Origin: Escherichia coli
GTDB lineage: Bacteria > Pseudomonadota > Gammaproteobacteria > Enterobacterales > Enterobacteriaceae
Length of the DNA: 64,000 nt
Reading direction: 5' to 3' (one strand)
Assembly: GCF_013122565.1 (NCBI RefSeq)
Contig: NZ_CP053258.1
Positions 2,826-26,700 of this stretch are shown here, piece by piece. The translations under genes and the position numbers were made by a program. The first letter of the stretch is position 1. Every line of letters starts with the position of its first letter. The notes beneath the pieces were generated by a model. It was not told where the DNA came from and ran no database searches. It saw nothing but the letters and a program-made list of their open reading frames with translations.

Positions 2826-3161
2826 ATGGGGCTGGTAATCAAAGCCGCGCTCGGTGCGCTGGTAGTGCTGTTGATTGGTGTTTTAGCAAAAACGAAAAAT
2901 TATTATATCGCCGGGCTGATTCCACTTTTCCCGACCTTTGCGCTTATCGCGCATTATATTGTTGCCAGCGAACGCGGCATTGAAGCCTTACGCGCAACCA
3001 TCATTTTTAGTATGTGGTCGATTATTCCCTATTTTGTTTACCTGGTGTCGCTGTGGTATTTCACCGGAATGATGCGCTTGCCCGCCGCTTTTGTTGGTTC
3101 TGTTGCGTGTTGGGGGATAAGCGCATGGGTGTTGATTATATGCTGGATAAAGCTGCATTAA
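2826..3161 (+). CDS. ydgC: GlpM-family small inner membrane protein
   Basis: 111 aa hydrophobic ORF; position between rstA and folM as in K-12. Confidence 0.8.
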   Translation: MGLVIKAALGALVVLLIGVLAKTKNYYIAGLIPLFPTFALIAHYIVASERGIEALRATIIFSMWSIIPYFVYLVSLWYFTGMMRLPAAFVGSVACWGISAWVLIICWIKLH

Positions 3162-3880
3162 CGCAGATGACGACCGCCATCAAGTGGGAAACTGCGTCCG
3201 GTGACAAAGCAACTGGTAAGTAAGTAATCGACCAGGTCGATCACTTCTTTCTCGCCAGGCGCGGTTTTCATCAGTGATTTATTCAGCGCCTGTTGTCGAT
3301 ATTCGGCATCATCATGTTCATTAAACAGGATCAGCGATGGCGCAATAGAATTCACTTTCACTTCCGGTGCCAGCTTGCGGGCAAACGAGCGGGTCATATT
3401 ATCCAGTGCCGCTTTGCTTGCAGCATACGCAATATGTTTGTCGCTACCGCGCTCCACCACATAATCGGTAAAGTGAATGATATCGCTGGCGGCGTGTCCG
3501 TGCCCACGCAGTAATCTTTCCAGCGCATGGTTGAGCAGGTATGGGGTATTAACGTGGATCTGCATCATGCAAGCCAGTACGTCGGCCAGTGGCGCACCCG
3601 GTTTTTCCGCCATCCACGCACTGGCGTTATGCAAAATAGCACGCAGACCATGGGTGCTTTTTAGTACTTCGTCGGCAAACGCCATCACACCGTCGTTGGT
3701 CGAAAAATCAGCCTGAATACACTGCGCACCTGCATTAATCAGTCCATCAATGGCTGGATAGTGCGTCCGATAGCTGACAATCACCGGTTGCTTTTGATTA
3801 ATGAAATGCCATGCGAGGGCGAGGCCGATGCGACGACCACCGCCAGTAATTAATATTGGCAAGGGCTGGGCTTTACCCAT
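3158..3880 (-). CDS. folM: Dihydromonapterin/dihydrofolate reductase FolM (SDR family)
   Basis: 240 aa ORF with N-terminal ITGGGRRIG Rossmann motif and YAASKAAL SDR active site. Confidence 0.85.
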   Translation of the reverse strand: MGKAQPLPILITGGGRRIGLALAWHFINQKQPVIVSYRTHYPAIDGLINAGAQCIQADFSTNDGVMAFADEVLKSTHGLRAILHNASAWMAEKPGAPLADVLACMMQIHVNTPYLLNHALERLLRGHGHAASDIIHFTDYVVERGSDKHIAYAASKAALDNMTRSFARKLAPEVKVNSIAPSLILFNEHDDAEYRQQALNKSLMKTAPGEKEVIDLVDYLLTSCFVTGRSFPLDGGRHLR

Positions 3881-17426: not shown

Positions 17427-17550
17427 CATTTTTTAACTGTTCTACCAAAATTTGCGCTATCTCAATTTGGGCCAGGAAAGCATAACTTAGACTTTCAAGG
17501 TTAATTATTTTCCTGGTTTATATTTGTGAAGCATAACGGTGGAGTTAGTG

Positions 17551-18246
17551 ATGCTGAAGCGTTTCTTTATTACCGGTACAGACACTTCTGTAGGGAAAAC
17601 GGTGGTTTCCCGCGCATTGCTACAAGCGTTAGCCTCCCAGGGAAAAACGGTTGCGGGATATAAACCCGTAGCGAAGGGGAGCAAAGAGACACCCGAAGGG
17701 CTGCGTAATAAAGATGCCCTGGTGTTGCAGAGTGTTTCAACCATCGAACTGCCTTATGAAGCAGTTAATCCTATCGCGTTAAGCGAAGAAGAAAGTAGCG
17801 TGGCGCACAGTTGCCCAATCAATTACACCCTCATTTCAAACGGCCTGGCAAACCTGACCGAAAAAGTCGATCATGTCGTGGTAGAAGGGACTGGCGGCTG
17901 GCGCAGTCTGATGAATGATTTGCGTCCACTCTCTGAATGGGTGGTGCAGGAACAACTGCCGGTGTTGATGGTTGTCGGTATTCAGGAAGGTTGCATTAAC
18001 CATGCACTGCTAACAGCTCAGGCGATTGCCAACGACGGGCTGCCGCTCATTGGCTGGGTGGCTAACCGAATCAACCCAGGACTGGCGCATTATGCGGAAA
18101 TCATTGATGTGCTCGGTAAAAAACTTCCGGCACCGCTCATTGGTGAACTGCCTTATCTGCCGCGCGCCGAACAGCGTGAACTGGGGCAATACATCCGCTT
18201 AGCTATGCTGCGCAGTGTGCTGGCGGTAGATAGAGTCACGGTGTAA
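17551..18246 (+). CDS. ynfK: Dethiobiotin synthetase paralog (BioD-like)
   Basis: ORF track 17539..18246; start [17 protein letters not shown] (P-loop); 231 aa. Confidence 0.85.
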
Positions 18247-19455
18247 CGTCCGCGAGATTACCGACGCAATTACGCAGGCAATCAATAAACCGGGGAGTAG
18301 CTGATACTCCCCGGTCATTTCACATATCATCAACGTCGACATAATCGGCGCGTGCGTGGTTGCCGCCAACAGTGTCGCCATCCCGGTCAATCCGAGTAAA
18401 AGCGTAATTTCTTCGCCATCAGGGAACCATAATCCCAGGCTACGACCATACAACATGCCAATGGCAAGACCGATAAATAGCGTCGGTGTAAAGACACCAC
18501 CGGGTGCGCCGGAACCGCTACTCGCCAGCACGGCACACAGTTTACAAAGGAAGATCCCGGCAATGATCATTAACAGTGGCGGGGCGGTTAAAAAGGATTG
18601 TACGGTGCTATAGCCGTTGCCCCACACTGCAGGTGTGAACAGGGAAAGCAGACCCACGATCAACCCGCCTAGTGCCAGTTGCCAGGGCGGCGCAAGTTTG
18701 AGACTCACAAATCCACGATGACAGGCGTTCATTAACGTTAACAACAGTGGTCCGCACAGACCTGCCAGCACACCTGTACTGATAATCAGCGCATAGTCAC
18801 GAGCCTGAACCGTCACTGAGAGTTGTACGCTGTAGAGTAACGCGTCGCTATGATTAATCAGATTGCTAACCAGCAATGCCACGACAGCGGAAATAATCAC
18901 CGGGCCGAGAGAGGCCAACATCATAGTGCCAAACAGCACTTCGGCTATAAATAAACTGCCAGCAAGCGGGGCGCGATAGGCCGCAGCCATTCCCGCCGCA
19001 GCTCCACAGGCGATCCATAATTTCCACTCCTGGCGTGGCGTAAAACGTTGGGTAAAACAGGAGGCGGCAAGGGCAGCTAAAAGAATCATCGCACCTTCGC
19101 GACCAATTGCACTGCCGCTGGTTACTACCAGCAGAGAGGCAAGCGATTTAACCAGGCTTGCTGCGTAATCAAACTGCCCATCGGTTTGCAACGCTTCCAT
19201 ATAATCGGTCGGCGCATGAGGGCGTTGCTGGGTAAATTTCTGCCAGCCCATCAGCAACAAACCCGCCGCCAGTCCGCCGAGCGCCGGAGTTAGCAGCCGT
19301 CGCCACGGGGAAAGATTTGTCGCTGCATTGACCAGACTGCCGGAGTCATTATTGAGGAACAACCACTCCAGTAGCAGCATCGCATGACGAAACCCGGCAA
19401 CGGCAAAGGCCGCGAGAATACCGACGGCTGTTGCGATAAGCAGACGGCGGAACAT
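18199..19455 (-). CDS. clcB: ClC-family voltage-gated chloride channel ClcB
   Basis: ORF track 18199..19515; likely start [12 protein letters not shown]; 418 aa; GSGIP-type selectivity motifs. Confidence 0.85.
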
Positions 19456-19648
19456 AGTGCGCAGATCCGGATAGATGTGTAGATGATGCATGAGCAGAAA
19501 TGGGCAATGAAACACGGGCGACTATTTTGCGGCAAAAGAGGCCAGCTGCAAAAGCAGTGCGTGCTTTAAGAGACAAAAAACGTGACACTGTAACGTATTG
19601 TTGCCGAATCGCGCGTAATCGTCACCATCCGGCAATATTACGGTGATC

Positions 19649-24273: not shown

Positions 24274-26700
24274 TTATATTTTTTCGATCTCGACCAGATT
24301 CGTGTGCTGCGGGTTTCCCTTCGCCAGTGGTGAAGGGCGCAGAGTGGTTAGCGTATTCACACAGCCTCCATGGTCGATTTTATCGCCAGACATATTGGCC
24401 TCATGCCAGGCTCCCTGGCCCATAGCGCTAACCCCAGGGAGAATGCGTGGTGTCACTTTGGCTGGTAGCCGAACTTCGCCACGATGGTTAAACACCCGCA
24501 CCATATCGCCGTTGGCAATCCCACGTTTCTGTGCATCTATAGGGTTGATCCACACCTCCTGACGGCAGGCAGCCTTCAGGACATCAATGTTGCCGTAGGT
24601 CGAGTGAGTACGGGATTTGTAATGGAAACCAAACAGTTGCAGTGGGAAGGTACTACGTTCAGGGGAGTCCCAGCCTTCAAAGGTTGAGGCATAAACCGGC
24701 AGTGGGCTTATCACTTCATCTTTTTCCAGTTCCCAGGTACGGGCAATTTCCGCCAGCTTGCTGGAATAAATTTCAATCTTACCGGAAGGCGTTTTAAGTG
24801 GATTTGCCTCGGGGTCGTCACGAAATGCTTTGTAGGCGACAAAATGACCATTGGGATCTTTACGCTTATAGATACCCATTTTTTTCAGTTCGTCGTAAGA
24901 CGGTAACGCCGGATCTTTGGCAAGCATTTTGGCGTACAGATGTTGTAACCATTGTTCCTGCGTGCGACCTTCTGTGAACTTTTGATAGACGTCAGGTCCA
25001 AGACGTTTCGCGACTTCACTCAGGATCCAGTAAATCGGTTTACGTTCGAATTTTTCGCTGGTGACTGGCTGGAGGAAAATGAGATATCCCATGTTACCGG
25101 CGTAGTCGTTAGGAATAATATCTTCCTGCTCAACGGTCATCAGGTCTGGCAGCAGAATGTCGGCATATTTTGCCGATGAGGTCATAAAGTTTTCGATGAC
25201 CACAATCATTTCGCATTTCGATTCGTCTTGCAGAATTTCATGCGTTTTGTTGATGTCAGAATGCTGATTAACGAGGGTATTTCCCGCGTAGTTCCAGATA
25301 AACTTAATGGGCACATCCAGTTTATCTTTGCCCCGGACACCGTCGCGGAGTGCCGTCATTTGCGGGCCATGATCGATAGCATCCGTCCAGCTGAAGCAGG
25401 AGATTGACGTTTTGACCGGATTATCCAGCACCGGTAGGCGTTCTATCGTAATGGTATAGGTCGATTCACGCGCGCCACTATTTCCGCCGCTGATGCCGAC
25501 ATTGCCCGTCAAAATAGGCAACATAGCAATAGCGCGTGCGGTCAGCTCACCGTTTGCCTGGCGTTGCGGCCCCCAGCCCTGGCAGATATAAGCGGGTTTT
25601 GCTGTGCCAATTTCACGAGCCAGCTTGATGATACGGTCCACCGGGATACCGGTAATTTGCGAAGCCCACTGCGGCGTTTTCGCTGTTTTATCATCACCTT
25701 CACCAAGAATATAGGCTTTATAGTGACCATTTTTTGGTGCATCTGCGGGTAAGGTTTTTTCGTCATAACCGATGCAGTATTTATCGAGAAAAGGTTGATT
25801 AACGAGATTTTCGTTAATCAATACCCAGGCAATACCCGCCACCAGCGCGGCATCGGTGCCCGGGCGAATAGGGAGCCATTCGTCTTCACGACCGGCAGCC
25901 GTATCGGTATATCGCGGATCGATAACAATCATTTTTGCGTTCGATTTTTCGCGCGCTTTTTCAAGAAGATAAGTGATGCCACCGCCGCTCATACGTGTTT
26001 CTGCCGGGTTGTTACCAAACATCACGACCAGCTTGCTGTTTTCGATATCCGTGGTGCTGTTGCCATCATTACTGCCGTAGGTGTAGGGCATGGCACAGGA
26101 AATTTGCGCAGTGCTGTAGGAGCCATACTGGTTGAGTGAACCGCCGTAGCAGTTCATCAGACGTTTGACCGCCGAGGCGGATGGCGATGAGCGGGTCATA
26201 TTGCCGCCAACGATCCCCGAAGAGTACTGAATATATACAGCCTCATTGCCATATTGTTCGACGGTTTTTTTCAGGCTACTGGCGATAGTATCCAGGGCTT
26301 CACCCCAGCTAATCCGTTCGAATTTGCCTTCGCCGCGTTTGCCCACGCGTTTCATTGGATAATTCAAGCGATCGGGATGATTAATACGCCGACGGATGGA
26401 GCGACCGCGCAAACAGGCGCGTACTTGATGATTGCCATACTCATCGCTGCCGGTGTTGTCAGTTTCCACCCAGGTCACTTCATTATCTTTAACATGTAGA
26501 CGAAGTGCACAGCGGCTACCACAGTTGACGGAACAGGCACCCCAGACCACTTTTTCGCTGGCCTGTTGTACCGCTGCCGCTGCACTGCGCAGGGTGAACG
26601 GTAAAGAAAAACCGCCTGCAGCCAGCGCCAGAGAACCTATCGCGGTAGATTTAACGAGTGTTCTGCGGCTGATGCCCACCATTTGTTCATTTTTGGACAT
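24274..26700 (-). CDS. ynfE: Molybdopterin oxidoreductase catalytic subunit (DmsA paralog, putative selenate reductase)
   Basis: 808 aa; Tat signal SRRTLVKSTAIGSLALAA; highly similar to ynfF (tandem paralogs). Confidence 0.9.
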   Translation of the reverse strand: MSKNEQMVGISRRTLVKSTAIGSLALAAGGFSLPFTLRSAAAAVQQASEKVVWGACSVNCGSRCALRLHVKDNEVTWVETDNTGSDEYGNHQVRACLRGRSIRRRINHPDRLNYPMKRVGKRGEGKFERISWGEALDTIASSLKKTVEQYGNEAVYIQYSSGIVGGNMTRSSPSASAVKRLMNCYGGSLNQYGSYSTAQISCAMPYTYGSNDGNSTTDIENSKLVVMFGNNPAETRMSGGGITYLLEKAREKSNAKMIVIDPRYTDTAAGREDEWLPIRPGTDAALVAGIAWVLINENLVNQPFLDKYCIGYDEKTLPADAPKNGHYKAYILGEGDDKTAKTPQWASQITGIPVDRIIKLAREIGTAKPAYICQGWGPQRQANGELTARAIAMLPILTGNVGISGGNSGARESTYTITIERLPVLDNPVKTSISCFSWTDAIDHGPQMTALRDGVRGKDKLDVPIKFIWNYAGNTLVNQHSDINKTHEILQDESKCEMIVVIENFMTSSAKYADILLPDLMTVEQEDIIPNDYAGNMGYLIFLQPVTSEKFERKPIYWILSEVAKRLGPDVYQKFTEGRTQEQWLQHLYAKMLAKDPALPSYDELKKMGIYKRKDPNGHFVAYKAFRDDPEANPLKTPSGKIEIYSSKLAEIARTWELEKDEVISPLPVYASTFEGWDSPERSTFPLQLFGFHYKSRTHSTYGNIDVLKAACRQEVWINPIDAQKRGIANGDMVRVFNHRGEVRLPAKVTPRILPGVSAMGQGAWHEANMSGDKIDHGGCVNTLTTLRPSPLAKGNPQHTNLVEIEKI

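Follow-up and report, generated by a model that had tools for sequence, protein, structure and literature searches.

Convergent overlaps in bacteria are mostly a few bases long. In such pairs, two genes on opposite strands share their 3' ends, and when they do so in the same-triplet antisense register, the stop of each gene falls opposite a leucine or serine codon of its partner (TTA, CTA or TCA), of which it is the reverse complement. The ynfK and clcB genes of Escherichia coli are arranged in this way, yet they share as much as 48 nt (36-66 nt in relatives), and this overlap has been retained in several genera.

At the level of RNA, the system closest to what we describe here is a class of Rho-dependent E. 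coli transcripts. Dar and Sorek 2018 (PMC6061677) found that these transcripts end just past stable stem-loops without U tracts, that such stem-loops protect against PNPase and RNase II, and that rut sites lie immediately downstream. The ynfK transcript resembles this class in several ways: its stem-loop is stable and comes without a proper U tract, read-through at its end is sensitive to bicyclomycin (BCM) in published data (PMC7815308), and the sequence immediately downstream is C-rich and G-poor. It differs in that the stem-loop does not lie in an untranslated spacer, but antisense within the coding sequence (CDS) of the convergent gene, where it constrains clcB codons. Other described elements are informative as well. 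Like intrinsic terminators, ynfK has an 11-bp GC-rich stem with a 5-nt loop, 42 nt past its stop; unlike them, it has a weak U tract (3-4 U in 8) and shows Rho dependence in published data. Bidirectional collision terminators (Ju et al. 2019; Wang et al. 2022) are likewise palindromic stem-loops near the gene ends of a convergent pair, whereas here the stem sits in one ORF, its pairing is conserved on one strand and the site is Rho-sensitive. Finally, RNA structures embedded in coding sequence suppress synonymous variation, and we see the same local loss of synonymous variation, with a nonsynonymous site that covaries with a synonymous one; the structured RNA in our case, however, is the antisense transcript of the neighbour gene and not the mRNA of the host gene itself. 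In the literature searched, we found no description of an embedded, strand-specific ynfK 3' stem-loop or of its imprint on clcB codons.

Our favoured explanation, to which we give a probability of roughly 60%, is that the 3' end of ynfK is a Rho-dependent terminator with a 3' stem-loop embedded in clcB, and that the overlap comes from the abutting cores of the two genes. The overlap itself is of little weight, and the useful result is the ynfK 3' stem-loop written into clcB. The features that define the arrangement of the two genes are the following.

17551..18246, + strand: CDS of ynfK (bidA, a bioD paralog), 231 codons plus TAA, from the ORF list and RefSeq annotations
19455-18199, - strand: CDS of clcB from the K-12 start, 418 codons plus TAA, from the ORF list, annotations and Pfam Voltage_CLC on orthologs
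18199..18246, both strands: tail-to-tail overlap of ynfK and clcB in the same triplet register, 48 nt, from a codon-by-codon table

All positions refer to the window, which is the whole stretch of 64,000 nt that was analysed, and a window position equals 1684770 minus the MG1655 coordinate. The region belongs to the E. coli chromosome, with the gene order mlc - ynfK - clcB - dmsD - ynfH, and was found in 5421 of 5426 complete E. coli genomes at 98-99.4% identity. Both genes are genuinely protein-coding: YnfK matches E. coli dethiobiotin synthetase (PDB 1a82) in phmmer with E=3e-65, and ClcB orthologs carry the Pfam Voltage_CLC domain. The start of clcB according to RefSeq PGAP is at 19491, 12 codons upstream of the K-12 start.

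A 48 bp convergent overlap of the ynfK and clcB 3' ends at 18199-18246 had been proposed from the sequence-only reading of this DNA, and it is confirmed by the ORF list, the raw sequence and RefSeq. In the ORF list and the raw sequence, the TAA of ynfK occupies 18244-18246, and the TAA of clcB is the reverse complement of the TTA at 18199-18201. The overlap had been described as the last 16 codons of each gene, which holds if the stop is counted and not otherwise, the shared 48 nt being made up of 15 sense codons and a stop codon per gene. Triplet boundaries are common to ynfK and clcB, with codon position 1 of one gene opposite position 3 of the other; the clcB stop lies opposite Leu217 (TTA) of ynfK, and the ynfK stop opposite Leu404 (TTA) of clcB. 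An earlier end of either gene was looked for, and neither ynfK nor clcB stops sooner in the window. Each stop lies inside the ORF of the partner with no earlier in-frame stop, in the window and also in 23 orthologous loci. The identical 48-nt overlap is present in the RefSeq annotation of E. coli D8, DH5alpha, BW25113 and K-12 MG1655, and the MG1655 coordinates are 1665315..1666571 for clcB (b1592) and 1666524..1667219 for bidA/ynfK (b1593). The overlap is already public annotation, and it is real but ordinary.

The length of the overlap can be compared with what the register allows by chance. The only sense codons that generate a stop in this antisense register are TTA, CTA and TCA, which account for 7 of the 231 ynfK codons (3.0%) and 18 of the 418 clcB codons (4.3%). 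Because the expected open antisense run is ~23-33 codons, a length of 48 nt is unremarkable once the genes abut in this register. The noteworthy aspect of the overlap is its persistence across genera, not its length. All 23 of the 23 orthologous loci examined have an overlap of 36, 45, 48 or 66 nt. Escherichia species share the 48-nt length with Scandinavium, Entomohabitans and the Cedecea group; Citrobacter and Salmonella have 45 nt, Enterobacter cloacae and Pseudenterobacter have 66 nt, and one metagenomic enterobacterium has 36 nt. The exception is E. coli E69 (L009), where a stop at clcB codon 412 (Q412) reduces the overlap to 27 nt and removes the ClcB tail. A scan of the genome collection and protein searches returned no outgroup with a convergent, non-overlapping ynfK and clcB, only overlapping pairs or ClC homologs without ynfK.

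The overlapping DNA encodes the C-terminal ends of both proteins, and these extend beyond the protein cores.

18211..18243, + strand: C-terminal tail of YnfK, residues 221-231, without counterpart in BioD and antisense to the end of the ClcB core including its S-I-Y motif
18202..18219, - strand: C-terminal tail of ClcB, residues 413-418 (HTAQHS), antisense to YnfK core residues 218-223

The last residue of E. coli BioD (PDB 1a82, 1dts) aligns to L220 of YnfK, and 11 YnfK residues are extra. In the AlphaFold2 model of YnfK (pTM 0.85), the mean pLDDT is 92 for residues 211-220 and 48 for residues 221-230, and each of residues 225-231 is below 50. Outgroup ClC proteins that are 43-50% identical to ClcB end 2-3 residues past the S-I-Y motif in five of six cases. 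ClcB itself extends past this motif by 8 residues in E. coli and by 15 in Enterobacter, where its tail is 7 residues longer, and its last ~6 residues are without counterpart in outgroup ClC proteins. Part of the YnfK tail can be read directly from the other strand, its conserved V-D-R being the complement of the ClcB S-I-Y codons (GTA GAT AGA vs TCT ATC TAC). The tails of YnfK and ClcB are probably short, variable and non-structural. Both can be lost or altered, as natural variants (L009, L027 and L023/L024) demonstrate, and the YnfK tail is 4 residues shorter in L027. Damage to clcB is frequent and takes the form of in-frame deletions or a duplication in E. coli clusters, the early stop of L009, and almost total loss of the gene from two Citrobacter species. 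An early C-terminal end was also considered for the shorter E. coli ClcB clusters (393-405 aa) and rejected, as these have internal in-frame deletions and an intact C terminus.

With its end at 18210, the YnfK core almost abuts that of ClcB, which ends at ~18217-18222. From this we infer an origin by deletion and read-through. One deletion taking out both stop codons and the spacer would yield the overlap architecture, and each gene would then read into the antisense of the other up to the first in-register stop, giving the 48-nt overlap and two short tails.

It had also been stated that neither gene can have a terminator outside the coding sequence of the other. This holds, with no intergenic DNA between the genes, and a stem-loop of ynfK was found at 18289-18315 inside clcB. 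Because no intergenic space is left, the 3'-end signal of ynfK is placed inside clcB.

18289..18315, + strand: conserved RNA stem-loop in the ynfK 3' UTR, 11 perfect bp with a 5-nt loop, about -21 kcal/mol
18316..18346, + strand: conserved post-stem tail (CATTTCACAnATCATCA), from alignment A2

On the ynfK-sense strand, positions 18289-18299 pair with 18305-18315, and the stem starts 42 nt past the ynfK stop. The stem-loop is built from clcB codons 381-389, ACC GGG GAG TAT CAG CTA CTC CCC GGT (T G E Y Q L L P G), and is located 29 codons ahead of the clcB stop. A terminator scan reported it with 12 pairs, as a stem-loop at 18288-18316. Perfect hairpins this large are uncommon, with 3 in the 64-kb window compared to 0.17 in shuffles. 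An Rfam search gave only a match at chance level (SR6 antitoxin, 23 bits vs a gathering score of 55). The reverse situation, a clcB signal within ynfK, was also considered. The scan contained no canonical terminator of clcB inside ynfK, the clcB-sense fold was not exceptional (z = +0.74), and no conserved clcB terminator was found there. Nor was a cluster of synonymous constraint found in the 3' half of ynfK, where synonymous variation is free.

The stem-loop is present in all 22 aligned orthologous loci and also in L027. It encodes a conserved segment of ClC helix R in which T, G, L, P and G are nearly invariant, and it could be argued that the hairpin is a functionless by-product of these residues and of codon bias, or that it acts in the clcB mRNA, for instance as a brake on translation. 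Codon usage along the gene makes this highly improbable. Among 15 full-length clcB orthologs (55-93% protein identity) aligned by codon, only three of the 178 conserved 4/6-fold codon columns use a single codon, and these are T381 (ACC), L387 (CTC) and P388 (CCC), all within the stem; they are the sole invariant 4/6-fold codons in the whole of clcB. In a set of 20 sequences, T381 and P388 are the only single-codon columns (2 of 165). CCC and CTC, which are among the frozen codons, are rarely used in E. coli. At L387, four sequences have CTG (Enterobacter, Pseudenterobacter, Scandinavium and L027), and they are exactly the four in which E383 is replaced by Q (GAG to CAG). The CTC to CTG change thus follows E383Q, and together they swap a G-C pair to a C-G pair, so that a nonsynonymous site covaries with a synonymous site. 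The covariation score was 0.139 vs 0.100 in shuffles and was matched by none of 500 shuffles. The compensatory change concerns one pair only and is probably a single evolutionary event.

The pattern of base pairing differs between the two strands. Counted over 9 core pairs in 23 sequences, cells of the ynfK-sense strand are Watson-Crick in 176 cases, G.U in 21 and mismatched in 10; the corresponding numbers for the clcB-sense strand are 176, 2 and 29. The orthologous sequences are related, and the counts are not independent events. In alignment A2, wobble-position transitions commonly produce G.U pairs on the ynfK-sense strand (columns 64, 67 and 46), whereas transitions leading to G.U only on the clcB-sense strand are essentially absent (none in columns 49 and 70, one in column 52). 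Wobble tolerance is confined to the strand antisense to clcB, which is again not what is expected of a by-product or of a structure in the clcB mRNA. A palindromic DNA-binding site was rejected on the same data, as the half-site symmetry is broken in many species in such a way as to keep the G.U pairs of one strand. A promoter-like match at 18301-18330 (+) was likewise rejected; its -10 hexamer TATCAT is AATCAT in most relatives.

Strand specificity also bears on whether the hairpin could act as a bidirectional, collision-type terminator that positions head-on RNA polymerase (RNAP) collisions and ends the transcripts of both ynfK and clcB. The two genes are convergent, the E. coli stem pairs perfectly whichever strand is read, and on the - strand it is followed by TTTATTGATT and is called a terminator by the scan. 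Positioned RNAP collisions do require a stem-loop (Wang et al. 2022 preprint, 10.1101/2022.10.23.513370). We nevertheless consider this reading very unlikely. Pairing on the clcB-sense strand is not conserved (29 mismatched cells vs 10), neither is the T tract of the - strand, and the site lies 29 codons before the clcB stop, where its use by clcB would truncate the ORF. In addition, the collision terminators described are Rho-independent and intergenic, while the ynfK site is BCM-sensitive and inside an ORF.

Comparisons outside the intact gene pairs lead in the same direction. An outgroup ClC gene (L029) that encodes the same T-G-Q-Y-x-x-L-P-G pattern, and whose convergent neighbour is a peptidase and not ynfK, has codons that form no stem, which argues against the residues alone producing the hairpin. 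All that is left of clcB in Citrobacter sp. Awk 4 and NCU1 is a 3' remnant of ~300 nt with independent deletions or indels and stops, while ynfK is intact. The hairpin and the next 18 nt are nearly unchanged in both. Awk 4 has one difference in the loop and one in the tail, and NCU1 differs at the base of the stem (A-U to U-U and C-G to U-G). The stem has here outlasted the pseudogenisation of clcB, contrary to what a by-product of ClcB residues would do. Within E. coli, 5192 of 5420 genomes carry an identical hairpin 60-mer, compared to 1967 of 5017 for the adjacent clcB 60-mer. The post-stem tail encodes highly conserved ClcB residues (L-M-I-C-E-M-T), and its conservation therefore says little about an RNA function. 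Judged from the alignments, the conservation of the stem-loop itself is RNA-level and strand-specific. These lines of evidence agree in suggesting that selection acts on the RNA stem of the ynfK transcript, fixing synonymous sites of clcB.

Termination at the ynfK 3' end has been captured in published data. Adams et al. 2021 (PMC7815308, Supp. file 2) list a bicyclomycin-sensitive Rho termination region at this locus, annotated as "primary: ynfK, antisense: clcB", with a Rho score of 4.21 and p=1.5e-6, based on DirectRNA-seq with and without bicyclomycin.

18256 (MG1655 1666514, -), + strand: highest Rho score in the published ynfK Rho region, 10 nt past the ynfK stop (PMC7815308); the score is computed over 800-nt windows, and 18256 is not a precise end

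Coverage upstream and downstream of the ynfK end was 85 and 11 without BCM, and 292 and 159 with BCM (PMC7815308, Supp. file 2). The downstream/upstream ratio in these data goes from 0.13 to 0.54, meaning that read-through rises when Rho is inhibited. Published data (PMC7815308) show in this way that termination at the ynfK 3' end is Rho-dependent. The Rho effect is partial, with ~45% of the coverage drop at the ynfK end remaining under BCM. Past the stem, the 50-nt block at 18297-18346 has 30% C and 14% G, and is a candidate rut region by composition only.

The remaining drop under BCM raises the question of whether the stem-loop is a classical intrinsic terminator of ynfK, with Rho as a backup. 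In line with such a terminator, a strong, GC-rich stem-loop of 11 bp follows soon after a stop codon, 42 nt past that of ynfK, and 19 of 20 sequences encode E379 by GAA, a choice that keeps UUUC past the stem. On the other hand, the stem is followed on the ynfK-sense strand by a weak U tract (UCAUUUCA, 3-4 U in 8), short of what an intrinsic terminator has, and the consensus scan, whose threshold is at least 5 T in 8, makes no call on the + strand and calls only the - strand copy. Intrinsic terminators are also Rho-independent, which the ynfK 3' end is not according to PMC7815308: the effect there is partial, and the locus is listed as a significant Rho termination region. The Term-seq tables of the same study, from LB or M63 cultures, contain no mapped RNA 3' end for ynfK or clcB, which counts against an intrinsic terminator and likewise against our favoured reading; low expression of the FNR-activated ynfK in LB and M63 is a plausible reason for this absence. 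Taken with the Rho data, we regard an intrinsic terminator with Rho as backup as unlikely.

Another dataset contains an entry for this gene. PMC10349824 (Supp. Data 4) gives a ynfK "Termination" position at 1664825 (-), which we set aside as it fits neither MG1655 v3 nor BW25113 numbering. It probably follows the numbering of U00096.2; converted on that basis, it would fall inside ynfK near window position 17968, a mapping that is uncertain.

A Rho-dependent ynfK 3' end with an embedded stem-loop could work as follows. Ribosomes would leave the ynfK mRNA at 18246, and Rho would load onto the untranslated C-rich, G-poor RNA around or just downstream of the stem-loop and terminate transcription inside clcB. 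The stem-loop would set the mature ynfK 3' end and shield it from 3'-5' exonucleases, and it may possibly be a weak intrinsic terminator too. Selection on this RNA structure would have frozen the synonymous sites of clcB. The exact 3' end of ynfK and the protective or terminator role of the hairpin are what we infer from the stem-loop and the published Rho region together.

The locus appears to be a clean natural example of a 3'-end RNA signal of one gene inside the CDS of its convergent neighbour. Its consequences are frozen codons, a synonymous site that covaries with an amino-acid change, and an element that outlives the decay of its host gene. More generally, conservation of synonymous sites in a gene may report a signal on the opposite strand. 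Expression of ynfK would probably be perturbed if the 3' end of clcB were deleted or "silently" recoded. The protective stem-loop model for Rho-dependent transcripts can also be put to a simple genetic test at this locus, since mutations that break the stem can leave both proteins unchanged.

Expression of ynfK is relevant to the possible effects of the overlap on clcB.

17452..17500, + strand: ynfK promoter region, from a published transcription start site (TSS) and an FNR-like box

The TSS of ynfK is at MG1655 1667270, or window position 17500, by SMRT-Cappable-seq (PMC6131387, Supp. 4), and clcB (b1592) did not turn up in the part of the SMRT-Cappable-seq operon table that was covered. Direct activation of ynfK by FNR, with ChIP, has been reported under anaerobic conditions (PMC3688515). 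We find a putative FNR-like box, TTGCGctatCTCAA, at 17452-17465, centred 41.5 nt upstream of the TSS and with 3 mismatches to the consensus. To include the stem-loop, the ynfK transcript must extend at least ~70 nt past its stop, and by geometry it would be complementary to roughly the final 117 nt of the clcB ORF (18199-18315).

Transcriptional interference or antisense pairing of the two mRNAs, which the sequence-only reading had raised, is geometrically plausible. On this basis, the overlap could have been kept as a regulatory arrangement in which FNR-driven ynfK transcription lowers clcB anaerobically, through RNAP collision or through a duplex and RNase III. In its more specific form, the stem-loop and the overlap would make up an oxygen-responsive switch, with the stable ynfK 3' UTR silencing the ClcB transporter by collision or RNase III. 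If this were true, selection would have favoured the hairpin in two roles, at the 3' end of ynfK and in anchoring a natural antisense RNA. We hold the regulatory reading to be decidedly doubtful and the switch to be quite improbable. The mRNAs would be complementary over at least ~117 nt by geometry, ynfK is FNR-activated from its own TSS, and the arrangement is conserved across genera. However, overlapping genes are hard to separate, and this accounts equally well for a conserved arrangement. In addition, clcB is often damaged or lost with ynfK kept, so a function directed at clcB is not what maintains the element there. Because the ynfK tail and the hairpin are kept where clcB is damaged or lost, the element is maintained for ynfK and not for the control of clcB.

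In two Citrobacter genomes, clcB survives only as a remnant, as follows:

approximately 2900-3250 of the ynfK/clcB locus of Citrobacter sp. Awk 4 (L020), clcB remnant
approximately 2960-3312 of the corresponding locus of Citrobacter sp. NCU1 (L021), clcB remnant

A deletion common to both has removed the first ~310-320 codons of clcB, plus whatever stood upstream, and just codons ~309/321-417 can be matched. Later, independent indels of 38 nt (Awk 4) and 15 nt (NCU1) are found in the remnants. Despite the loss of clcB, ynfK and the conserved hairpin on its 3' side are retained in both genomes.

Natural alterations of clcB (18199-19491; protein entries P0002, P0012, P0033; L009, the E. coli E69 locus) are also frequent within E. 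coli. Among E. coli protein clusters, ClcB carries 25-residue in-frame deletions (one such cluster has 154 members) or, as an alternative change, a 26-residue duplication, and codon 412 is a stop in E69. Because these deletions, the duplication, and the stop occur, the sequences suggest that selection on clcB is relaxed in part of the species. RefSeq PGAP places the clcB start 12 codons (19456-19491) upstream of the K-12 MG1655 annotation, giving 430 aa vs. 418 aa, and the longer N terminus is likewise called for orthologs in other genera.

Upstream of ynfK, two promoter elements can be placed relative to the published transcription start site (MG1655 1667270, window 17500; PMC6131387):

17452-17465, candidate FNR-like box, TTGCGctatCTCAA, three mismatches to TTGAT-N4-ATCAA, centred 41.5 nt upstream of the start site
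17488-17493, -10 hexamer, TAGACT

The candidate box and the -10 agree with the reported direct activation of ynfK by FNR (PMC3688515).

Two published signals may fall inside ynfK, both with uncertain mapping. For ynfK, PMC10349824 Supp. Data 4 gives a half-life-segment border of the "Termination" type at 1664825 (-). This coordinate agrees with no numbering but the older U00096.2 one, under which the border would lie at window ~17968, within the coding sequence and ~280 nt before the stop. HusR (YnfL), a LysR regulator encoded nearby, has a genomic SELEX peak reported at 1,664,668 in older coordinates, in the clcB < ynfK < dgsA interval (PMC12844172); the peak would correspond to window ~18125.

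Elsewhere in the window, perfect hairpins include:

25795-25821, palindromic, 11 bp, TTGATTAACGA-GATTT-TCGTTAATCAA
38977-39006, GC-rich, 11 bp, GGCTGGCCTGG-N8-CCAGGCCAGCC

The former, one of just three such hairpins in the whole window, lies within the ynfE coding sequence (placed by collinearity with MG1655), and its outer arms read TTGAT...ATCAA.
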